Positions 851 to 46,415 of a stretch of DNA of 47,672 nt are shown here, in pieces. The notes under the pieces are model-generated. The model was not told the origin of the DNA and did no database searches. It saw nothing but the letters and a program-made list of their open reading frames with translations. This DNA is from an uncultured Aureispira sp. Lineage in GTDB: Bacteria; Bacteroidota; Bacteroidia; Chitinophagales; Saprospiraceae. Positions within the stretch are counted from its first letter, which is position 1, and each line of letters starts with the position of its first letter. The stretch is taken from contig CACVAQ010000010.1 of assembly GCA_902727865.1 (NCBI GenBank), positions 1 through 47,672 of the forward strand, in the 5' to 3' direction. A program made the position numbers and the translations under genes.

Positions 851-3352
851 GTGGAGGAAGATGTTACCGTAAAAGCTTACCCAAAAAACTTTACAACAAC
901 ATCTTCCTTTCATGGTGTTGAACGCAACGAAATTGGTTTAAAATACTTACCTAAACCAGATTATTTGGAATTTTCTTTGCCAAATACACACCTTGCACTA
1001 GTCACTAATGATGGTTCAGAATTAACACAACAAGTCGTCCAAGCTTTAGAGCAAAAAGGAAACAAAGTTGTTGTTCTGAACCTTCATCAAGTGAACAATC
1101 CTATCCAACACAACAGTGTGACTCTTTCTTCCAATACAGACGATGCCATAAAAGCCGCTATTGAAACGGTTCAAAATCAATATGGCGCTGTTGGAACTTT
1201 CATCCACTTACATCCTCATTTTGAATTCCAAAATGGCAACTTCACCCAACACTTTGCGGTAGAAAGAGACTTAGTAAAAGCCGTCTTCCTTATTGCCAAG
1301 CACATCCAACCTGCTCTAAATGAATTGGGCAAAACAAATCGGGCTAACTTTTTAAGTGTAACTCGCTTAGATGGTCAATCTGGCTTGGGCAAACGGGGCA
1401 ATACTTCTATTGTTGGTGGTGGTTTAAATGGCTTGGTCAAATGTTTAAATTTAGAATGGTCACAAGTCTTTTGTAGAGCAGTTGATATTCAACCCGAATT
1501 AAGCACAACAAGCATTGCAGCACATATTATCAGCGAACTACACGATCCGAATCGCTCGATTATAGAAACGACGATTAGTGAAAATGGTAGAGCAATGTTA
1601 ACAGCCAAAAAAGTAGTTGTAAAAGAACATCAAGAAATTGAAACGGCTGTTAGCAATGAATCTTTATTCTTAGTGAGTGGTGGTGCTCGTGGCGTAACGG
1701 CAAATTGTGTCATTGAAATGGCTAAAGCCTTCAAAGCTAAATTCATTTTATTAGGTCGCTCCAACTTTGAGTTTGAAGTGCCTGCTTATGCTCAAAATGA
1801 GTCCGATGATGGTGCATTAAAACGTTTGATTATGACCGATATGAAGAACAAAGGTCAAAAACCAAACTTGGCAGAAGTCAAAAAGACCTTTAACAGCATT
1901 GTTGCCAAAAAAGAAATTGAAGCAACGATCCAAGCGATTAAAAAGAATGGTGGAGAAGCGGTTTACATCAAAGGCGATGTAACGGATGTTAGAACGGTAA
2001 AACCACAATTACTAGCGATCACCAAACGTTGGGGAGCGATTACGGGCATTATTCACGGTGCAGGACGTTTGGCAGACAAATACATTCAAGACAAAGCGGA
2101 ACAAGATTTCTTAAATGTTTTGACGGTAAAATTAGATGGTTTGTTAACTCTGTTGCAATGTGTTAATATTCACAAACTAGAGCATTTGGTCCTATTCTCC
2201 TCTGTTGCTGGTTTTTATGGTAATGTCGGACAAACGGATTATGCGATTGCCAATGAAATATTGAGCAAAGCGGCTCACTTGTTTAGAACCAATCATCCGA
2301 ATACACAAGTATCTGCCATCAACTGGGGCGCTTGGGATGCTGGAATGGTTAGCGATGCCTTGAAAAAGAAGTTTAAAGAAATGGGGGTTGTTTTGGTCAA
2401 CAGTGAAGGTGGACCGGCTATGATGGTGAACGAAATGAACATTCAATATGCCAACCAAGCTCAAGTCATTATTGGTGGAACGTTGCCTGCTGGCATTTCG
2501 TATACCGAAGGTGCTTTGGAAACACATCGCATTCATAGAAAGATGCTTTTAGCTGAAAATCCTTTCTTGATGCATCACGTGATTCAAGGAAACGCTGTCT
2601 TGCCTGTTGTGAATGCAGTCGGTTGGATGACAAATACCTGTGAGCAAGTCTTCCCTGATTTTAGCGTGCATATTGTAAAAGATGCGAAGCTATTTAAAGG
2701 CGTTGTTTTTGATGGTTCGGAACCAATTGATTATATCATTGAATTGAAAGAAATTCAAAAAGATGCCGATACCATTTCATTAGAAACAACGATTCTAAGT
2801 CAAGCGCCTACTGCTAAATTACCAACCTATCATTACAAAGCTCAGGTGACTTTGATGGCTAAGAAAAACAAATTGGGCTTGCCTAAATTTCAAGCCGCAC
2901 TAAGTGGCCGATATACGCCTACTGATGGAGCTGTTTTGTATAAAAATGGGGCTTTATTTCACGGGGCTTATTTCCAAGGAATTGAGCAAGTTTTAGATTG
3001 GACCGAGCAACAAATTGTGCTAAAATGTAAAGCGCCTGAAGTGCCTGCTAAAGATCAAGGTCAATTTCCAGTGATTGGAGTGAATACCTTCTTCTCGGAC
3101 ATTCAGTACCAGGGCATGGTGATTTGGGTACAACAATACAATAAGGGGGCAAAATCATTGCCTTTGTCTACCGAATCTGCCACGGTTTACAAACCTGTTC
3201 CTTTTGGAAAAGAATTGTTTGTTCATATAGAAGTCGTAGAAAGTAACGAATTCAAAATGGTGGCCAATTGCACGACTTACGATGAAAATGGCGAAGTGTA
3301 TTTGTTTACTAAGAATGCTGCGGTGACCGTTTCTAAGGAATTACAATGGTAG
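851..3352 (+). CDS. PUFA synthase ketoreductase + PKS-type dehydratase subunit (equivalent to the C-terminal part of canonical PfaA)
   Basis: KR motifs SGGARGVT, IIHGAG, FSSVAG and YAIANE; DH motif HHVIQGNAVLP (HxxxGxxxxP); GTG start. Confidence 0.9.
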   Translation: MEEDVTVKAYPKNFTTTSSFHGVERNEIGLKYLPKPDYLEFSLPNTHLALVTNDGSELTQQVVQALEQKGNKVVVLNLHQVNNPIQHNSVTLSSNTDDAIKAAIETVQNQYGAVGTFIHLHPHFEFQNGNFTQHFAVERDLVKAVFLIAKHIQPALNELGKTNRANFLSVTRLDGQSGLGKRGNTSIVGGGLNGLVKCLNLEWSQVFCRAVDIQPELSTTSIAAHIISELHDPNRSIIETTISENGRAMLTAKKVVVKEHQEIETAVSNESLFLVSGGARGVTANCVIEMAKAFKAKFILLGRSNFEFEVPAYAQNESDDGALKRLIMTDMKNKGQKPNLAEVKKTFNSIVAKKEIEATIQAIKKNGGEAVYIKGDVTDVRTVKPQLLAITKRWGAITGIIHGAGRLADKYIQDKAEQDFLNVLTVKLDGLLTLLQCVNIHKLEHLVLFSSVAGFYGNVGQTDYAIANEILSKAAHLFRTNHPNTQVSAINWGAWDAGMVSDALKKKFKEMGVVLVNSEGGPAMMVNEMNIQYANQAQVIIGGTLPAGISYTEGALETHRIHRKMLLAENPFLMHHVIQGNAVLPVVNAVGWMTNTCEQVFPDFSVHIVKDAKLFKGVVFDGSEPIDYIIELKEIQKDADTISLETTILSQAPTAKLPTYHYKAQVTLMAKKNKLGLPKFQAALSGRYTPTDGAVLYKNGALFHGAYFQGIEQVLDWTEQQIVLKCKAPEVPAKDQGQFPVIGVNTFFSDIQYQGMVIWVQQYNKGAKSLPLSTESATVYKPVPFGKELFVHIEVVESNEFKMVANCTTYDENGEVYLFTKNAAVTVSKELQW

Positions 3353-3392
3353 TGTAGAGTATTTTAAATGGTAGTGTAGAGAATTTTAAATG
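3345..3392 (+). repeat. 22-bp tandem duplication spanning the KR-DH stop codon
   Basis: AATGGTAGTGTAGAGTATTTTA followed by AATGGTAGTGTAGAGAATTTTA, then AATG. Confidence 0.9.
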
Positions 3393-3447
3393 TTTAATTC
3401 TTAATGTTAAATGATTTAATGTTGGAATTAAAACTTAAAAATAAAAT

Positions 3448-3953
3448 ATGAAAGAAAATGTCGTTTTAGAAAAGTCTTTTACCTTCTCTTTGAAAATTAT
3501 AGCGTTGTATAAAACTAATACTCCGTTGATTTTTTAGTTTTTCTATGAAAAACATAAAAAAGCATCTTGCATTAGTTTGATTATCAGCTTTTTAATACTT
3601 TGGCAATTAAAAAATCATCTTGCTGATAATCAAACTAATACGATTTTTCAACGGAGTAATGTAAAACGTTACAAGCAGAAAAAGAATTTGTTATTTCAAA
3701 GCAGCTATTGCGCTCTGCTACCAGTATTGGTGCAAACGCAAATGAAGCATCTGCTGCTCAAACAAAGAAAGATTTTATTGCTAAAATGGCGATTTCTTCC
3801 AAAGAAGCTAGAGAAACACATTATTGGCTAAGACTATTACAAAAAAGCCAATTAGTACCTTTAGACTATAATGATTATATTTTACAAATAGAGGAATTAA
3901 TTCGAATTATAACAGCTATTGTAAAGACATCACAAAATAATCTAAAAAGGTAA
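3448..3953 (+). pseudogene. Four-helix-bundle protein (23S rRNA IVP / TIGR02436-like) disrupted by an insertion
   Basis: MKENVVLEKSFTFSLKIIALYK from 3448 hits TAG at 3535-3537; TLQAEKEFVISKQLLRSATSIGANANEA...KEARETHYWLRLL resumes after 3667; deleting 3516-3667 restores a 117-aa ORF. Confidence 0.88.
3516..3661. mobile_element. 146-bp non-autonomous MITE-like element (E1) with 6-bp target duplication
   Basis: Terminal IR TACTCCGTTGA (3519-3529) / TCAACGGAGTA (3648-3658); inner 18-bp perfect IR 3571-3588 / 3622-3639; TAAAAC direct repeat at 3510-3515 and 3662-3667; interrupts a recognisable gene. Confidence 0.85.
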
Positions 3954-4026
3954 AATGTTGATTTCTTAATGTTGATGTTTTTTCATAATTCAACATTAAA
4001 TTCAACATTAAACATTATAATAACAT
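3954..4026. repeat. AATGTT/AACATT short-repeat hairpin downstream of the four-helix-bundle gene
   Basis: AATGTTGA twice, then TCAACATT twice plus AACATT and AACAT; complementary AATGTT units also lie upstream at 3389-3423. Confidence 0.7.
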
Positions 4027-7000
4027 ATGAAAATAGCAATCATAGGAATGTCTGGCTTGTTTCCTGGGTCTTCTACCAATAAAGAATTTTGGGAGAACCT
4101 AGTTGGCGAGAAGAATTTAATAAAAATGGCGACAGAGGAAGATTTTGGCGTATCGCCAGATACCTTCTTTCAGTCCGACAAAGGCGTGGTTGATAAATGC
4201 TATTCGCTGCGTGGTGGTTATATTCGAAACTTTGAATTTGATCCTACGGGGTATAAATTGCCTAGTGACTTTGTTGCCAAGCAAGATAAGCTCTACCAAT
4301 GGTCTTTGTATGTTGCCAAAGAAGCTTTGAAAGATAGTGGTTATTACGATAGTAAAACAGCTTTAGAAAAATGTGGTTTGGTCTTAGGAAATCTTTCGTT
4401 TCCGACGGGCTCCTCGCACAAACTAATGTCTAGTGTTTATACACAAACGACCGAAAAAGCACTTCAAGAATTATTAGAGGATGATAATTTCAAAATAGAA
4501 TCGCATAAATACGAGCAGCCTGACAATGAAGTTTTGTGTGACACGCCTTCCAAAATGGTTTGTAAAGCGTTGGGATTGGGAGGCAATCATTATGCCTTAG
4601 ATGCCGCTTGTGCCACCTCTCTTTATGCTATAAAGTTAGCTTGTGATGATTTGATGACGGGCAAATCCGACTTGATGCTGGCAGGAGCCGTTTGTGCTTC
4701 TGACCAACTATTTATACACATGGGCTTTTCTATCTTCCATGCCTATGCACCGCACGATGAGAAATTTGCGCCACTGGACAGCAATTCTGGTGGTTTGGTT
4801 TCTTCTGAAGGGGCTGGAATCGTTGTCTTAAAACGATTGGACGATGCGCAATGGGATGGCGATAAGATTTTGGGAGTTATTGGGGGCATTGGTTTGTCAA
4901 ACGATGGTCGTGGTAAGTTTTTGCTAAGTCCGAATCCTAAAGGTCAAAAACTGGCTTTTGAGCGAGCTTATTTGAAAGACGATGTCTTGCCTAAAAACAC
5001 CAGTTACCTAGAATGTCATGCTACAGGAACGCCTTTGGGCGATGTAACAGAAATGAATTCTATTTCTGATTTCTTTCAACAACATCATGCAGCCCCACTT
5101 TTAGGTTCTGTCAAGTCTAACATGGGGCATTTGTTGACAGCAGCAGGAATGACTGGTTTATTCAAAGTCTTGTTGTCTATGGAAAAAGGCTTTATTCCTC
5201 CAAATGTAAATCTAACAGAAGCCGTTCAGACTGAAAATCAATTCATCAAGGACGAACATATTATCACAAGAGCCACCCCATGGAAAGGCAATCAAGCAGG
5301 GATTAATTCTTTTGGTTTTGGAGGAACAAATGCGCACATGGTGATTCAGGCTTATGAAAAAGAAAAACCAGCAGCTTATAAGTTGCTCAGCATGGAAGCG
5401 ATGTCTATTGTTGGAATGGAAGCTTATTTTGGAGATTGCACCAATTTAGATGATTTTTATGCGTCTATTTATAATGGCAAACAACACTTTAGAGCATTGC
5501 CCGCTGAGCGTTGGAAAGGATTTGATGCCAATGAAGCGCTCTTAAAAGAATACGGTTTCAAGAATGGAAAAGCGCCTAAAGGCGCTTATATTGATCGTTT
5601 TGAAATTGATTTGTTGCGTTATAAAATTCAACCCAAAGAAGCGGAAACTTTAGAACCTCAACAAGCGCTTATTTTGAGTGTGGCGGATAAAGCTTTGCAA
5701 GATGCAGGCATTGACGAAAGTCAAAACATTGCGGTTTTAATTGCCATGGAATCAGAATTAGCGATTCATCATTATTTATCTCGTTGGGATAGTGTCTGGC
5801 AAATCGAAGAAGCGATTGAACGCAGCAATATTATTCTAACTGAGGAAAAGAAAAAAGAGTTAAAGGAACAATGTAAAAACGCCTTATATTTCAGAGAAGG
5901 TGGACAAACGCCTAGTCAGCATACTAGTTTTGTTGGTAACATTATGGCAAGTCGAATTGCGGCTTTGTGGGATTTTTCTGGTCCTGCTTTTACGGTTTCT
6001 TGTGGTGAGAACTCTGTTTTCAAAGCACTAGAAGTTGCTCAAAATATGCTTTCCTTAGGCGAAGTCGATGCGGTCGTTGTTGGTGGGGTTGATTTTTGTG
6101 GTGGTTTAGAAAGCGTCTTATTACGCAATCAAAAAAATCCTGCGAGTACGGTTCCGAATCCAAGTTTGAGCCTCAATCAAAATGATGCTGGTTGGCTCGT
6201 CGGTGAAGGTGCTGGAGCGATTGTTCTCAAACGCAGCAAAGAGGCTAAAAAGGACAAAATTTATGCAACGATTGACCACATTGGTAAAGCAAAAACGGAA
6301 CTCAACATTGGCTATCAAGAATTGGTGGCGAGTGGTGTCGCAGCACAGGACACGCAAGAAATTGCACAATTATTAAAAACCAAACAAGAGCAAGAGGTTG
6401 CTTTGGGTTCGGTCAAAACATCTATTGGCAACACTTGTGCTGCCTCAGGAATTGCCAGCTTGATTAAGACGGCCTTGTGTCTTCACCATCGTTTTATTCC
6501 TGGTATTCCGAATTGGAAAGCACCTAAATTAGCAGAAGAATTTGCGGGAACCAATTATTACTTCCCTGCAAAATCTCGCCCTTGGCTGTTGAGTAACAAT
6601 CAAGAAAAGCGACGCGCAGCGATCAATGGTTTGGACGGCCTTCAAATTCAATTAACAGAATCGCCTGTTTATCAAGAAAAAGAAACGCCCTTAACCAACG
6701 GAAGAGTTACGAATATTATTCTGATAAAAGGGAATAGTGAAACGGCTCTGAATACGCAAATTCAGGTCTTAGAAAAAGCCCTTCTAGAGGGCAAAGCCTT
6801 AAGCCAAATTGCTGCACAGTCTTATGCCTCTACTAAGCAACAAAAATATACTTATTGTATTTCTATACTGGCTCGCAACAAAAAAGCCTTTGCACAAGAA
6901 TTAAAATTCATCAAGCTAGGTTTGCCCAATGCCATTCTAGAGAAAAAAGAAATTAAAACACCTAAAGGTTCTTACTTTACAGGAAATCCTCTAGGAACAA

Positions 7001-10000
7001 AAGGAAAAGTAGCCTTTGTTTACCCTGGTTCTGCGGCGGCATACAATGGCTTGGGGCAAGATATTTTCCAACTGTTCCCTCAACTGCACACGCATTTTGA
7101 AGAGAAGGTTCCTAATATGTCAGAATTTGTTGGCACTCAATATTTACATCCAAAAACACAAACAGCGGACACGGCGACGCCTAACATTCACAAAGATGCG
7201 ATTGCCATGATGTCCGCAGGTGTTTTTTCTTCGGCTATTTACACCCATATTTTACGTGCTTATTTCAAACTAGAGCCTCAAATCGCTTTTGGTTATAGTA
7301 TGGGAGAATCTGCCAGTATGTGGTATTCTCTAAATGTTTGGAGTCCGACAAGAACTAGTGTTTTCAAAAATTCAAGTCTCTTTCAAAACGAATTTTCTGG
7401 CGACTTAAATTTGCTAGCAAAAGTTTGGGATACCACTTCTGAAGAGGCAAAAGAACGTTGGGTAAGCCTCATTTTATTAGCGCCTAGAGCCAAGGTTGAA
7501 GCATTGGTTGCTCGTTATGACAAGACCTATCTCAGTTTTGTAAACACCAATAATGAGGTAATTATTTCAGGAGAAAAAGCGACTTGCCTATCTATTGTAA
7601 GCCAACTGAACTGCCATTCGATAGAAGTACCGTTTCAAAATGTGATTCATCATGACTTTTGCAAAATGGCTCATGATGACTTGATGGAAATGCACGAATT
7701 TTCGTTAGAAGAAAAACCTAACATTGATTTTTACTCTAGCCTTACTTTAGAAAAATTGCCTTTTGACAGCAATATAATTGCACGCAATTCATCCAAAATT
7801 TGCTATCAAGCAGTTGATTTCCCTAGAACAGTGGAAACTATTTATGACAAAGGCGCTAGAATTTTCATAGAATTAGGAGCCAATGCGACTTGCACTTCTT
7901 GGATTAAAGAGAATTTGGCAACGAAGGAGCATCTAGCGATTAGCATGAACAAAAAGGGCAAATCGGACGCACAAAACATCTTGGAAGCGATGGCGCAATT
8001 GCTCAGTCATGGTGTTGCTTTGGACTTGGATATTTTATATAAAAACATCCTATTAGAAGCCGAGCCTCGTTCGTTCAAAAAGGAAATTATCACAGGCGGA
8101 AAACGTATCTTTGATGTCTTGCTTAGCGAAACTAATAAAGCTAGCTTTGCAAACCTCCAACGAAAAGCAATCGCCAAAGAACCTACTTTAGCCGTAGTCG
8201 ATTCAGAAACAAACCTTGTAGCAACAAGGCTTGAATCGTCCAATACGAAACAAAAAAATATTTCAATAGCTCGTGCTCAGCAATTGTCTGAGACACAAAA
8301 ATCAATCGTCACCTTGGAAACAAAAACAGTTGAAACAATGCACAACAAAACCTCCAATCCAACGATTGGCGAAAACGGTTTGTTGCTTCAAGACTTTGCC
8401 TCTGGAGCGCAATTAAAAGGAAAAACTATTATCTTTTCTCAAGAAGACTTACAAGAATTTGCCGAAGGTAAAATTGGAAAAGTCTTTGGTCCTGATTACG
8501 ATATTATTGACAGTTATAGCCGACGAGTCATGCTGCCAATGGATCCCTATTTATTGGTTAGCCGTGTGACGGGTTTGAACGCTAAAAAAGGCGAATACAA
8601 GCCTTCTACCATGCAAACAGAGTATGACATTCCTTATAATGCTTGGTTTACGACTGATGGGCAAATTCCTTGGGCGGTTTCGGTTGAGTCTGGTCAATGT
8701 GATTTGTTGTTGATTTCTTATTTGGGGATTGACTTTGAAAACAAAGGCGATTTGGTGTATCGTTTATTGGATTGCACCTTGACTTTTGTAGACGACTTAC
8801 CATTTGAAGGGCAGACTTTGCGGTATGATATTTCGATCAATTCGTTTGTAAAAAATGGAGATAATCTATTGTTCTTCTTTAGTTATGACTGTTATGTAGA
8901 AGATCGCTTGGTCTTAAAAATGCGTGGTGGCTGTGCTGGTTTCTTTACCGACGAGCAATTGGAAGAGGGCTTAGGATTGATTTACACAAAAGAGGAATTG
9001 CAAGCAAAAGTAAATGTAAAAAAACCTAAATTTACGCCTTTATTAAACACTACCAAAACAAGCTTTTCTAAAGAAGATTTGCACCATTTGATTGATGGTA
9101 ATATTGAAAAATGTTTTGGCAATATTTCTTATTATGCGAATGGACGGAACCAGTCTTTGTGTCTGCCTTCGGAGCAAATTTTAATGCTCGACCGAATTAC
9201 TTCTGTTGATTTACAAGGCGGTGCTTATGGTTTGGGCTATATCGTAGCTGAAAAAGATTTGAGCCCGAACGACTGGTATTTCCCTTGCCATTTCCGTGAC
9301 GACGAAGTACTTGCAGGCTCTTTGCAAGCAGAAGGTGGTGGAAATTTGTTGCGTTTCTTGATGTTAATGCTTGGATTACAACGCTTGACGAAAGACGCTC
9401 GTTACCAACCGATCTATGATTTGCCTCAAAAAGTACGTTGTCGCAAGCAGGTGGTGCCAGGAAAAGATACCAAATTAGTGTACAAATTAGAAGTAAAAGA
9501 AATTGGCTTGGTTCCAAATCCGTATATTATCGCTGATTTAGAAATCATTTCTGATGGCGTGATTACGGTTCATTTTGAGAACTTAGGTTTACAATTAAGA
9601 GAAAAAGACAATCCTAAATACTTAGAGCAAGAAGCTGGTGTTAAAATTTCGCCCCGCTCTGAAGGCGCTCTGTTGAATGAGTTGGACATCACAAATTTTG
9701 CCTTAAGTGACTTATCCAAGGCTTTTGGTCCCGACTTCTCTTGTTATGATGGAAGAACGGTTTCTCGTCAGCCCAACACCGATTTACAATTGATTTCTAG
9801 AGTATTAAAAATAGAAGGAGAACGCTTGTATTTCAAGAAACCTTCTACGATTTATGCAGAGTATGATGTCCCTGTAGATGCTTGGTATTATGAGCAAAAT
9901 TCTACGAAGACCATGCCTTATTCTGTCTTAATGGAAATCGCTTTGCAACCTTGTGGTTTGTTGGGTGCTTATATGGGATCTACCTTGAAGTTCTCTGACA

Positions 10001-10818
10001 AAAACTTATTCTTCCGTAATTTGGATGGTGATGGAGAAATGTTTGACTTGCCAATGGGAACCGATTGGAGAGGAAAAACGATTCACAACAAATCTGTCTT
10101 AGTTTCTTCGGTCTCTTTGGCTGGAACGGTTTTGCAAAATTATACTTTCGAATTAAGTATAGATGGTCAGGTATTCTACAAAGGAAAATCTTCTTTTGGA
10201 TTCTTTCCTGGCGAGGCATTAGCGCAGCAAGTTGGGTTGGATAATGGAACAGATGTTCCTGCTTGGTATCAAAGTCAAAATTTACAAGCAAAGGATTATT
10301 TGTCTATTAATTTAGATTCTTTGTATGGTAAAATGAAGTTATTCAAAGCACCTGCGGACAAACCGCATTATCACTTGGCGGGAGATCAATTGTTATTATT
10401 AGATCAACTAAAGATTGTCAAAGATGGCGGAAAATATAGCAAAGGCTATGTTCATGCTAGTAAGATTGTCAATACGTATGATTGGTTCTTTACTTGCCAT
10501 TTCTACCAAGATCCTGTAATGCCTGGTTCTTTGGGGGTTGAAGCCATTCTACAAGCCATGCAAACCTTTGCTTTGCAACAAAATTTAGGTAAAGATTTTA
10601 AATCGCCTAAATTTGTGCAGTTAGACCACCACAAAACTTCTTGGAAATACCGTGGTCAAATCTTGTTGGGGGTAGAAAACATGCACTGTGAAGTGCATTT
10701 CAAAACCATTGAAAAACGAGGAAATACCTTGGCAATTATTGGCGATGCGTTTCTTTGGAATGAAGGAACTCGCATTTATCAAGTTACTGATTTAGCCTTG
10801 GGTATTGTGGAGGCTTAA
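4027..10818 (+). CDS. pfaC: PUFA synthase PfaB/C-type subunit: KS-CLF-AT-DH(FabA)-DH(FabA)
   Basis: KS triad DAACATS / HATGT / GHLLTAAG; second KS-like (CLF) domain; AT GYSMGE; two FabA-type DH motifs CHFRDDEVLAGSL and CHFYQDPVMPGSL. Confidence 0.93.
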   Translation: MKIAIIGMSGLFPGSSTNKEFWENLVGEKNLIKMATEEDFGVSPDTFFQSDKGVVDKCYSLRGGYIRNFEFDPTGYKLPSDFVAKQDKLYQWSLYVAKEALKDSGYYDSKTALEKCGLVLGNLSFPTGSSHKLMSSVYTQTTEKALQELLEDDNFKIESHKYEQPDNEVLCDTPSKMVCKALGLGGNHYALDAACATSLYAIKLACDDLMTGKSDLMLAGAVCASDQLFIHMGFSIFHAYAPHDEKFAPLDSNSGGLVSSEGAGIVVLKRLDDAQWDGDKILGVIGGIGLSNDGRGKFLLSPNPKGQKLAFERAYLKDDVLPKNTSYLECHATGTPLGDVTEMNSISDFFQQHHAAPLLGSVKSNMGHLLTAAGMTGLFKVLLSMEKGFIPPNVNLTEAVQTENQFIKDEHIITRATPWKGNQAGINSFGFGGTNAHMVIQAYEKEKPAAYKLLSMEAMSIVGMEAYFGDCTNLDDFYASIYNGKQHFRALPAERWKGFDANEALLKEYGFKNGKAPKGAYIDRFEIDLLRYKIQPKEAETLEPQQALILSVADKALQDAGIDESQNIAVLIAMESELAIHHYLSRWDSVWQIEEAIERSNIILTEEKKKELKEQCKNALYFREGGQTPSQHTSFVGNIMASRIAALWDFSGPAFTVSCGENSVFKALEVAQNMLSLGEVDAVVVGGVDFCGGLESVLLRNQKNPASTVPNPSLSLNQNDAGWLVGEGAGAIVLKRSKEAKKDKIYATIDHIGKAKTELNIGYQELVASGVAAQDTQEIAQLLKTKQEQEVALGSVKTSIGNTCAASGIASLIKTALCLHHRFIPGIPNWKAPKLAEEFAGTNYYFPAKSRPWLLSNNQEKRRAAINGLDGLQIQLTESPVYQEKETPLTNGRVTNIILIKGNSETALNTQIQVLEKALLEGKALSQIAAQSYASTKQQKYTYCISILARNKKAFAQELKFIKLGLPNAILEKKEIKTPKGSYFTGNPLGTKGKVAFVYPGSAAAYNGLGQDIFQLFPQLHTHFEEKVPNMSEFVGTQYLHPKTQTADTATPNIHKDAIAMMSAGVFSSAIYTHILRAYFKLEPQIAFGYSMGESASMWYSLNVWSPTRTSVFKNSSLFQNEFSGDLNLLAKVWDTTSEEAKERWVSLILLAPRAKVEALVARYDKTYLSFVNTNNEVIISGEKATCLSIVSQLNCHSIEVPFQNVIHHDFCKMAHDDLMEMHEFSLEEKPNIDFYSSLTLEKLPFDSNIIARNSSKICYQAVDFPRTVETIYDKGARIFIELGANATCTSWIKENLATKEHLAISMNKKGKSDAQNILEAMAQLLSHGVALDLDILYKNILLEAEPRSFKKEIITGGKRIFDVLLSETNKASFANLQRKAIAKEPTLAVVDSETNLVATRLESSNTKQKNISIARAQQLSETQKSIVTLETKTVETMHNKTSNPTIGENGLLLQDFASGAQLKGKTIIFSQEDLQEFAEGKIGKVFGPDYDIIDSYSRRVMLPMDPYLLVSRVTGLNAKKGEYKPSTMQTEYDIPYNAWFTTDGQIPWAVSVESGQCDLLLISYLGIDFENKGDLVYRLLDCTLTFVDDLPFEGQTLRYDISINSFVKNGDNLLFFFSYDCYVEDRLVLKMRGGCAGFFTDEQLEEGLGLIYTKEELQAKVNVKKPKFTPLLNTTKTSFSKEDLHHLIDGNIEKCFGNISYYANGRNQSLCLPSEQILMLDRITSVDLQGGAYGLGYIVAEKDLSPNDWYFPCHFRDDEVLAGSLQAEGGGNLLRFLMLMLGLQRLTKDARYQPIYDLPQKVRCRKQVVPGKDTKLVYKLEVKEIGLVPNPYIIADLEIISDGVITVHFENLGLQLREKDNPKYLEQEAGVKISPRSEGALLNELDITNFALSDLSKAFGPDFSCYDGRTVSRQPNTDLQLISRVLKIEGERLYFKKPSTIYAEYDVPVDAWYYEQNSTKTMPYSVLMEIALQPCGLLGAYMGSTLKFSDKNLFFRNLDGDGEMFDLPMGTDWRGKTIHNKSVLVSSVSLAGTVLQNYTFELSIDGQVFYKGKSSFGFFPGEALAQQVGLDNGTDVPAWYQSQNLQAKDYLSINLDSLYGKMKLFKAPADKPHYHLAGDQLLLLDQLKIVKDGGKYSKGYVHASKIVNTYDWFFTCHFYQDPVMPGSLGVEAILQAMQTFALQQNLGKDFKSPKFVQLDHHKTSWKYRGQILLGVENMHCEVHFKTIEKRGNTLAIIGDAFLWNEGTRIYQVTDLALGIVEA

Positions 10819-12516: not shown

Positions 12517-12548
12517 TGTTTTAAGCTTGTTTGAGAACTCAAAGACTC
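12514..12548 (+). repeat. 35-bp motif starting at the pfaD stop codon (copy 2)
   Basis: TAATGTT-N6-TTGTTTGAgAACTCAAAGACTC. Confidence 0.75.
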
Positions 12549-12641
12549 TGCGTAGCTAATTTTTGCCCTAGCGGACTCTTTTTCATAGTAGGCTGACAAA
12601 AGGTTCAAAGAGCCTCTTTTGGGGGTAAACTTTTATAAAGT

Positions 12642-21675: not shown

Positions 21676-21792
21676 TAATAGTTCGGTAATTTTCTATTTT
21701 TAAACAAAATCAAAAAACACCATTCTATCAAATTGATTTACAAACACTAAGTAGTTACAAATCAATCGAATCAGGTTTTTACCGAACGAATG
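21676..21792. mobile_element. MITE-like structured element (E2), related to E1 and E3
   Basis: Terminal IR GTTCGGTAA (21681-21689) / TTACCGAAC (21779-21787); shares AAATCAAAAAA..TTGATTTACAAAC with E3; outer TAA...ATG ends as in E1. Confidence 0.65.
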
Positions 21793-40825: not shown

Positions 40826-40993
40826 TACTCCCTTGTTTTTTAAAATTTTTACTTAGCTACGCTGCTACTTCGTTACTTACGTGAAGTCACTTTGTTAGTC
40901 GCTAAGCTCCTGAGCGCTGCGCTTTAGTTCCCTTCCTTCGGGTGCTATAATTTGCCACAGCGGACTTTTTTTCTTTTTAAGAACAATAGGAGT
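40826..40993. repeat. IR-bounded element with GC-rich REP-like cargo
   Basis: TACTCCcTTGTTtTTTAAAA ... TTTTAAGAACAAtaGGAGT ends; internal mini-palindromes such as AGCGCTGCGCT. Confidence 0.5.
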
Positions 40994-44605: not shown

Positions 44606-44921
44606 CGTTATTTTTTTTCGTTGATTCGTCTAGGCTTTGGAAAATTAGTTTCAAGTATATTTCAATCAATTCATACCCTTCAACAACTAATTTAGTTCCC
44701 CTAAGAACAAAAATAAACACTAGGCTTAAAAAAGCTAGTGTTTATTGTATTTTTTATATAAAAATCTTGTTTTTATATCTGTTTTGTATGTTAATAATTA
44801 AGTCGTCCAATGAAGCAGATGCGAAAACACTCCCTACCTACTGTTATGAAAAAGAAAAAGAGTAGGCTGTGGCAAAAATCAGCTGCACTGCGTCTTTAAG
44901 TTGTCAAAGACCCTTAAATAT

Positions 44922-46415
44922 TTATCCCATCATTCTTGCATGTACAAAAGAATAACCGCTAATAATAGAGTAGCCTAAAAATACTAAAATATGAAAAGGC
45001 AACATTCCTACAATACCGTAATAAATAGAAATCACAATAGTAGATAAGAACATCAAGGCGAATAATAATTCTACTTTAGCAATTGGGCTAACGCCTTTAG
45101 ACATATATTTATTTGCCGACCAACCTTTTTTCTGTTTGGCATCTTCCAAGTTAAATTTTGGTGTACGAACGAAAGGCGTTTTCTTTCCAATATAACCTTC
45201 GACAGCAGCCATCGCATTGTGCAAGCCCATTCCCATAGACAAAGCTAAAAAGAAAGGGAAGCGAATGATAAAAGAGAATAAATTTTTAATAGAAAAACCG
45301 CCTCTTGTATGCTCGTAAGACAACCAGAAAAATAAAGAAACCATAATCATATTCAAAGAACCTAAAGCAGCATATCCTAACACATCATTATAGATAGAAG
45401 TATCTCCTTGATGAACATATTGTACCCAAACCAATGGAATACTACTCAAAGAAAGCATTAAAATACAAATAAAAATACCTGTATTCATCAAATGCGAAAT
45501 CGCATGTAACTTATCTACAAGCCCCATTTCTTTAGCTTTCATGACCCTAGGCAAGTTTTTAATAGCACATTCCGCAGCACCTTTAGTCCATCTAAATTGT
45601 TGGCTTTTAAACGCATTCATAACGACAGGTAATTCAGCTGGAGTTGTTACATCCCCCAAATATTTGAAGACCCAACCTTTCAATTGTGCACGATAACTCA
45701 AATCTAAATCTTCCGTCAATGTATCCGAAGACCAACCACCAGCATCTTCGATACAAGCACGTCTCCAAAGACCAGCCGTACCGTTAAAGTTGATGAAATG
45801 CCCTGACATGTTACGCCCCATTTGTTCGACCACAAAATGCGCATCTAATGCTAAAGCTTGCATTTCTGTCAAGAAAGAATAGCCTTTGTTCATGTGTTCC
45901 CAACGGGTTTGAACCACACCAATGTTAGCCTCTTTAAAATAAGGAATGGTGCGCTTCAAAAAGTCGGTATGAGGAATAAAGTCGGCATCAAATACAGCGA
46001 CAAATTCACCTTCTGAAATGGTCAAGCCATAAGCCAATGCGCCCGCCTTGAAACCAACACGCTCTGGACGACGCACATGCTTGATGTCCCAGCCGTAAGA
46101 TTCTAAAGCCTTAATTTTATTTGCAATAATTTGAACGGTTTCGTCCGTAGAGTCATCCAATACTTGAATTTCTACTTTGTCTTTTGGATAATCTAACAAA
46201 ACGATTGCATCCAAAAGGCGTTCTATTACATAAAGTTCGTTGTAAACAGGTAACTGTATCGTTACGGTAGGTACAAAGTCGTCCGTCATTACAGCATTAT
46301 TGTTCTCTTTTCGGCGTCTCCACCAAAAGCTAATAGCAAGGTGCAGTTGCACACAACTATAAAGAAAAATAAAAATGAGGGGAAGCACATATAATGTAAT
46401 AATGAATATTTCCAC
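44922..46415 (-). CDS. GT2 processive glycosyltransferase (cellulose synthase-like / CslA-like), membrane-bound
   Basis: QLPVYNE, LDDSTD, FDADF, TEDLDL, QQFRW (D,D,D,QxxRW) plus transmembrane helices. Confidence 0.9.
   Translation of the reverse strand: MEIFIITLYVLPLIFIFLYSCVQLHLAISFWWRRRKENNNAVMTDDFVPTVTIQLPVYNELYVIERLLDAIVLLDYPKDKVEIQVLDDSTDETVQIIANKIKALESYGWDIKHVRRPERVGFKAGALAYGLTISEGEFVAVFDADFIPHTDFLKRTIPYFKEANIGVVQTRWEHMNKGYSFLTEMQALALDAHFVVEQMGRNMSGHFINFNGTAGLWRRACIEDAGGWSSDTLTEDLDLSYRAQLKGWVFKYLGDVTTPAELPVVMNAFKSQQFRWTKGAAECAIKNLPRVMKAKEMGLVDKLHAISHLMNTGIFICILMLSLSSIPLVWVQYVHQGDTSIYNDVLGYAALGSLNMIMVSLFFWLSYEHTRGGFSIKNLFSFIIRFPFFLALSMGMGLHNAMAAVEGYIGKKTPFVRTPKFNLEDAKQKKGWSANKYMSKGVSPIAKVELLFALMFLSTIVISIYYGIVGMLPFHILVFLGYSIISGYSFVHARMMG

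Follow-up and report, generated by a model that had tools for sequence, protein, structure and literature searches.

A gene in the window (the whole 47,672-nucleotide stretch analysed here, from an uncultured Aureispira sp.) is interrupted by a 146-bp element. This element belongs to a high-copy family of non-coding MITEs whose terminal repeats are imperfect and 14 bp long and whose target duplications span 5-7 bp. Very probably it is moved in trans by a DDE transposase, that of an IS2621-like insertion sequence (IS) with matching ends. It is short and has no transposase ORF, it has terminal inverted repeats and a target duplication with an empty allele, and it is dispersed in multiple copies, all of which are features of MITEs. 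It is an undescribed member of a well-known element type, the IS-derived MITE, because its ends and its 5-7-bp duplication are common to a DDE IS group; no published description of it was found in a literature search that was thin in subscription journals.

The element and the gene it interrupts

TAAAAC direct repeats at 3510-3515 and 3662-3667 bracket a 146-bp non-coding element at 3516-3661, as the sequence-only reading had described. The features of the site are the following:

3448-3953, + strand: interrupted gene of the four-helix-bundle type, Pfam PF05635 (23S_rRNA_IVP), encoding 117 aa where the insertion is absent
3510-3515, + strand: target duplication TAAAAC, left copy; T at -10 (3506) fits the target motif
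3516-3661, + strand: 146-bp MITE, subfamily F1 backbone without inserted modules (from copies, ends and empty allele)
3516-3529, + strand: left terminal inverted repeat TAATACTCCGTTGA; 108 exact copies, match to the IS end profile
3530-3560, + strand: A/T-rich subterminal hairpin (from the fold)
3571-3588, + strand: left arm of the 18-bp inner inverted repeat (from fold and copy comparison)
3582-3594, + strand: candidate match to the IHF consensus WATCARNNNNTTR, predicted only, at element positions 67-79, the element centre
3622-3639, - strand: right arm of the 18-bp inner inverted repeat (from fold and copy comparison)
3648-3661, - strand: right terminal inverted repeat, read inward CATTACTCCGTTGA; 109 exact copies, 16 of its first 18 bases identical to an IS left end in the same genome (G000, C329:4098)
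3662-3667, + strand: target duplication, right copy; A at +3 (3671) fits the target motif

Both stems of the earlier description are present, an 11-bp terminal stem (3519-3529 with 3648-3658) and a perfect 18-bp inner stem (3571-3588 with 3622-3639). The terminal stem does lie 3 nt in from each end, but these outer nucleotides are not simply unpaired: in left TAA and right CAT position 2 pairs while positions 1 and 3 differ, so that each end is one arm of a 14-bp inverted repeat with two mismatches. Similarly, the A/T-rich arm exists but is itself a hairpin. The terminal TAA and CAT are fixed in subfamilies F1 and F2 alike. The element strand folds at -38.9 kcal/mol (z = -9.9), which 0 of 200 shuffles equalled, and an Rfam search of the element returned sub-threshold miRNA matches only, with no family above threshold. 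Donation of a start or stop codon by the terminal ATG or TAA was considered and rejected because it is rare among copies: a long ORF stops at this TAA in 2 of 137 left ends and starts at this ATG in 3 of 140 right ends.

The host gene opens at 3448 (MKENV...LYKT) and now terminates inside the element after 29 codons; the reading frame is open from 3663, as KTLQAEKEFVISKQLLRS..., until the stop at 3953. In another genome of the genus (G012) the orthologue (L027, 1501-1854) keeps an intact ORF of 117 aa, in which TAAAAT is present once in the same place, and its alignment with the window has one 152-bp gap (146+6) and no further gap in the coding region. The insertion thus truncated the host gene to 29 codons, and the empty allele of a relative has the in-frame gene that the sequence-only reading had expected. 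Its word "recent" stands in a relative sense only. The two TAAAAC copies are identical, the closest other copies of the element are 4 of 146 bases away and the G012 site is empty, but no empty allele appeared in contigs of the three runs that contain this strain, and no contig joint skipping the element was found in runs X1-X4 (contigs drop rare variants).

The neighbours of the host gene are pfa-type fatty-acid synthase genes (851-3352 and 4027-10818). Among 15 genomes, a four-helix-bundle gene was found at this site in G000 and G012 only, with a weak 23-aa query, and this gene may be an accessory cassette within the pfa cluster. Short repeats of the TTAATGTT / TTCAACATTAA type border it (3385-3425 and 3955-4015), and a 21-bp tandem duplication that is missing in G012 lies at 3350-3392, directly after the stop of the upstream pfa gene. 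Additionally, comparison with L027 showed that the first half of the host gene is clearly diverged and that about 250 bases over its second half (window 3741-3997) are identical; this difference suggests that the G000 and G012 lineages have recently recombined.

Copies, target sites and subfamilies

A genome search of G000 found 108 exact left ends and 109 exact right ends, and the 11-bp core was counted 241 times, whereas 100 shuffled cores averaged 1.9 (maximum 14). A 5-7-bp duplication flanks 68 of the 88 paired copies (6 bp in 51, 7 bp in 12 and 5 bp in 5), whereas 1000 re-pairings of the flanks gave a mean of 1.0 duplications and a maximum of 5. The 51 six-base targets define the motif T-N3-[6]-N3-A, with T at -10 in 92% and A at +3 in 78%, and an A/T preference recurs ten bases further out on both sides of the target; the window site fits this motif. 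Copy lengths range from 32 to 622 bp. Minimal 32-bp copies, which are the two ends alone with a duplication, occur in three genomes (G000 C88:1294-1325 and C223:125-156; L008 2436-2467; L013 734-765) and could have arisen by in-place deletion or be mobile.

The left end was counted 33 times in G005, 69 in G009 and 51 in G012, and zero times in 11 other genomes of the genus and 26 further relatives. When one mismatch was allowed, only G000, G009 and G180 were clearly above control among 401 genomes of the family. G180, from another genus and with 50 matches, was rejected as a carrier since its motif is internal to a different repeat: loci L030-L059 are copies of a multicopy repeat with an internal motif, YAATACTGCGTTGAAAAG, near the MITE end. 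Among the matches listed, paired ends with duplications were found only in Aureispira-named records (80 loci examined). The G000 and G012 lineages gained copies separately, because all 13 of the G012 copies with collinear flanks in G000 lack an element end there; this comparison covered 30 of 38 G012 matches, of which 10 had no collinear pair and 7 no right end in the locus. A stricter base-level test of 30 G012 copies scored 1 site as empty, 3 as unclear, 19 without a paired hit and 7 without a right end.

The sequence-only reading had claimed mobility for an element without coding capacity and had suggested looking for further copies, an empty allele, the duplication length and target motif, and longer copies that enclose a transposase. 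Copy number, duplications (5-7 bp, mode 6), target motif, the empty allele and lineage-specific sites all agree with mobility, but no transposase-bearing long copy exists among 91 end pairs. In G005 two ends 1.4 kb apart enclose an sbcD-like gene, but this candidate for a longer, gene-bearing copy was rejected together with 19 other unpaired ends, all of which proved to be separate short copies with no shared duplication.

Two sister subfamilies have the same 146-bp backbone as F1. F2, in G000, has 125 left and 102 right 13-mers forming 79 pairs with ends TAATACTTCGTGGG / CATTACTTCGTGGA (for example at C29:7617 and C71:6869), and has backbone length, modules, duplication and target in common with F1; its duplications are of 6 bp in 47 copies, 5 bp in 14 and 7 bp in 8, with T at -10 in 47 of 47. 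Seven apparent F1/F2 hybrids were seen, none with a clean duplication. F3, in G009, has ends TAGTAGTTCGTTGA / CAATAGTTCGTTGA and a 6-bp duplication in 21 of 28 fetched copies. Contig C1 of that genome holds 131 TAGTAGTTCGTTGA ends and 156 YAATAGTTCGTTRA ends, one of these ends being the IS consensus. In addition, an IS-type right end closes the same 146-bp body in the G009 copy L018, and G009 also has a whole subfamily with such ends. Elsewhere in the window, at 21676-21792, a relative of 117 bp with ends TAATAGTTCGGTAA...TTACCGAACGAATG has decayed and lost its duplication; about ten old copies like it occur in G000, and their ends resemble those of IS loci L253-L256. Three further places, 12520-12590, 40850-40990 and 44835-44925, hold copies of another repeat family that is unrelated to the MITE, with 70-90 BLAST hits each.

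Longer copies carry modules inserted into the backbone. In 53 gap-free F1 copies with an A/T backbone, inserts occupy four places, after base 14-16 (12 copies), 24-25 (18), 116-117 (24) and 129 (9). The inserts are seamless, with zero loss of backbone bases, and the common units are 20, 21 and 22 bp, which nesting lengthens to 42, 51-53, 78 bp and more. One 22-mer is found at backbone position 15 in F1 and at 130 in F3, and the same GC-rich hairpin modules also lie within an unrelated repeat at window 40850-40950, the window's own 146-bp copy being module-free. Modules could have spread by independent mobility or by recombination between copies.

The probable partner insertion sequence and the proposed route of mobilisation

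Partner candidates were inventoried for the PF01609 and PF01797 families. A motif search of PF01609 loci found a whole 1312-bp IS of the same genus (L173, G003:C154) with a 418-aa transposase ORF and ends TAATAGTTCGTTGA / CAATAGTTCGTTAA. At contig breaks of G003, four left and four right IS ends pair one-to-one by manual reading, with duplications of 7, 6, 5 and 5 bp. The IS group is found in 56 of the 401 family genomes. Of 110 loci examined, 92 gave ends, with the consensus CAAT(A/G)(G/C)T(T/C)CGTTAA; the end pattern used to find them came from a preceding comparison that slightly favoured ends beginning with [TC]A[AT]. Among the 81 loci with both flanks, the duplication is 5 bp in 8, 6 bp in 15, 7 bp in 4, 4 bp in 1 and 3 bp or less in 53, and none is longer; 54 of the 81 thus have no 5-7-bp duplication, and short contigs may join flanks from different copies. 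The target motif of the IS is weaker than that of the MITE (T at -10 in 8 of 15, A at +3 in 12 of 15).

The MITE and this autonomous IS have ends and duplication in common. Against a profile built from 139 IS ends, the element's ends in the window reach 14.2 and 11.4 bits, values attained by 7e-6 and 2e-5 of random genome 14-mers (about 1 in 40,000-150,000), MITE ends themselves included. The earlier objection that the ends are atypical of IS-derived MITEs therefore failed: they score within the end family of a DDE IS with the same 5-7-bp duplication, and loose terminal bases are tabulated for IS4 and IS701 elements, where first or third bases are loosely conserved in IS4 subgroups and three terminal bases are undefined in IS701 (De Palmenaer et al., PMC2266710, the end descriptions of section 6 and Table 1). 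In G000 itself, contig C329 terminates in an IS left end, CAATAGTCCGTTGA (last 83 bases), that differs from each MITE end by two bases. This IS end lies three bases from a MITE copy (C329:3908-4180) and seemingly landed in the left duplication of that copy. Runs X1-X3, from one study that may be the source of this DNA, contain 95-97% of the window's words, their contigs cover most of the IS body, and X3 contains the C329 IS/MITE junction.

The transposase has domains PF01609 and PF13546 and 2485 homologues, and residues D104, D190, E319 and Y312-R315-E319-K326 are invariant in 50 of 50 aligned sequences. Its predicted structure (pLDDT 84.8) has Tn5 transposase structures as best fold matches (E 5.8e-10); a sequence search of solved structures gave no match, nor did a first metagenome scan with one protein as query. 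Among NCBIfam models the transposase falls below every cut-off, the best being NF049999 (IS701_3) with 99.6 against 170 bits, and the best IS4 model reaches 39 bits against cut-offs of 115-250.

In the proposed mechanism, a transposase dimer would bind both MITE ends and the element would be cut out in the manner of Tn5, in keeping with the DDE and YREK motifs and the best fold match. Insertion would then proceed with a 6-bp stagger, at times of 5 or 7 bp. More tentatively, with ends only 146 bp apart, synapsis may also need a sharp bend. Several observations bear on the other side. Assemblies gave no intact transposase of the IS group in G000 and, in G009 (two contigs, nearly complete, with hundreds of MITE ends), zero matches to the transposase profile; G005 has a deleted relic only and G012 a fragment only, and in G003 the IS is present and MITE ends are not above control. 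Furthermore, none of the IS ends is identical to a MITE end; the nearest, found at 3 of 92 loci, are 2 of 14 bases off. Nearly all IS ends (99%) begin with C, but T is invariant at the first position of one MITE end. The helper gaps and end mismatches fit an old burst after which the helper was lost, a common history for MITEs, but they leave the helper enzyme as one that we infer.

A sharp bend for synapsis would account for a backbone of fixed length, an IHF-like motif at its centre and surviving inserts that tend to add about two or three helical turns. Scored against the IHF consensus, 39 of the 146-bp copies (40 in the two subfamily sets) have the motif at bases 67-79, as do 105 of 122 backbone copies, compared with 5% of shuffles. 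Of the two HU/IHF-like genes in G000, neither scores above an IHF cut-off. In 123 gap-free F1 and F2 copies with a duplication, 56 of the 82 that lie outside 145-147 bp fall within 1.5 bp of 146 + 10.5n, where one third would be expected, and the same test by distinct length gave 28 of 50. When F3 was tested afterwards, the fixed 10.5-bp phase failed (9 of 28 distinct lengths), its own peak being at 10.8 bp; all three subfamily sets, which have a few modules in common, peak at 10.65-10.85 bp. After lengths within 1 bp were merged, P was 0.36-0.40 in a free scan and about 0.05 for periods of 10.2-11.4, so the periodicity of 10.6-10.9 bp is suggestive only and borderline after correction. Helical phasing of transposon ends has been shown in vitro on short engineered transposons. 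A reading in terms of transpososome geometry is possible but less likely than not: a 146-bp backbone of about 14 helical turns with an exactly central bending-protein site would keep 20-22-bp mobile hairpin modules mainly if they add whole turns, and lengths would be quantised at about 10.6-10.9 bp to hold the ends in register.

We consider it unlikely that a different, related transposase, for example of a true IS701 family member, moved the MITE and that the likeness to IS2621-like ends comes from common ancestry. Both MITE ends do fit all seven defined positions of the IS701 end signature, ---YACT-Y--YR in Table 1 of PMC2266710, with C at position 6 in only about 30% of IS ends, and G009 has no IS2621-like transposase. 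However, IS701 elements duplicate almost exactly 4 bp according to that paper, against 5-7 bp here, and the family has an incomplete YREK; moreover, the six multicopy PF01609 IS groups examined in G009 all have unrelated ends, and an IS2621-like end two bases off the MITE end lies within G000 itself.

A REPIN/REP-type origin, in which a RAYT (HUH/Y1) enzyme would move the element as a single-stranded hairpin, would suit the very stable fold and the many small GC-rich hairpin modules of the longer copies, and G012 has one PF01797 gene. This explanation is nevertheless largely refuted and highly improbable. PF01797 genes number zero in G000, G005 and G009, and one each in three element-free genomes, the five PF01797 loci have no element end, and no IS200 transposase was found in G000, G005 or G009. 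The stems have no strand bias (13 G-T against 13 A-C cells over 25 pairs in 70 distinct copies, two reversed duplicates included), and double-stranded recognition is therefore favoured. Staggered duplications at a symmetric target, such as the 5-7-bp ones found here, indicate a DDE dimer, and none are described in the portions of the REPIN literature consulted. Very little probability likewise attaches to a repeat maintained by the host as an RNA structure, regulator or nucleoid-organising site, with incidental mobility. The 146-bp length, inner repeat and central motif are kept in three subfamilies, and the stems have compensatory changes between them at several pairs, but we attribute conservation of the backbone to the needs of transposition. 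Against host maintenance, G000 and G012 do not share insertion sites, the insertion in the window disrupts a gene, few of the terminal TAA and ATG triplets act as a stop or start, and no Rfam family reaches threshold. Mobilisation in trans by the IS2621-like transposase thus remains the reading we prefer.

Relation to known systems

The closest named relative of the partner IS is probably IS2621. Locus L352, on Deinococcus radiodurans plasmid MP1 (NC_000958), is 1322 bp long with 19-bp perfect inverted repeats starting CAATGGTTCG and a 7-bp duplication, and its transposase is 29% identical over 407 aa to that of L173. Its size and repeat length match those given for IS2621 in the relevant portion of PMC11219805, and IS2621 is reported to be transpositionally active; we take L352 to be IS2621 on the basis of size, repeat length and host rather than of a named annotation. 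In the literature searched, no description of a MITE of the IS2621 group was found. The partner transposase has the D(60-110)D(100-150)E and Y(2)R(3)E(6)K spacings by which section 6 of PMC2266710 defines the IS4 family, but IS4 target duplications measure about one helical turn, 7-13 bp by subgroup, and the 5-7 bp of the partner IS (mode 6) does not fit this. From IS701 it differs in its 5-7-bp duplication and full YREK. The text of the 11 supplements of PMC2266710 does not contain the name IS2621, and pictorial end logos there may bear on family assignment; ISDra1 is an IS10-subgroup entry in the same source.

The MITE superfamily is very abundant, with several hundred ends per genome in 4 of 15 genus genomes, and the IS group linked to it stays below the cut-off of every curated NCBIfam model. 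More than 100 natural MITE insertions define the duplication range and target motif, the family is ready for annotation, and the window copy cleanly knocks out its host gene, for which an empty allele is available. Should the quantised lengths and the bending site at the centre prove real, they would be evidence on a genome scale that helical phasing acts on natural MITEs and selects the nested modules that persist.

Prokaryotic MITEs such as Correia, ERIC, RUP and Nezha are likewise short and A/T-rich, have terminal inverted repeats shared with an IS, a duplication and a strong fold, and occasionally disrupt genes, and an IHF-type motif is reported for Correia elements in the passages of PMC3049150 and PMC3184786 that describe them. 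The present family differs in its ends and partner, and has a variable 5-7-bp duplication, a fixed 146-bp backbone and four seamless insert sites. BOX elements of Streptococcus pneumoniae and S. suis, as outlined in part of PMC3049150, are modular and MITE-like, 67-637 bp long, with terminal repeats, a target duplication and a proposed IS mover. By description they resemble the family studied here (32-622 bp) in being modular, but they are boxA-(boxB)n-boxC tandem arrays, whereas here distinct modules enter four fixed sites and nest, which is not the BOX layout. The small dispersed repeats (SDR) of Nostoc, which Elhai et al. reportedly described in 2008, are said to be 20-27-bp independently mobile units without duplication. 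Compared by description, they resemble the inner modules, which are 20-22-bp GC-rich hairpins that sit seamlessly at varied sites in different backbones.
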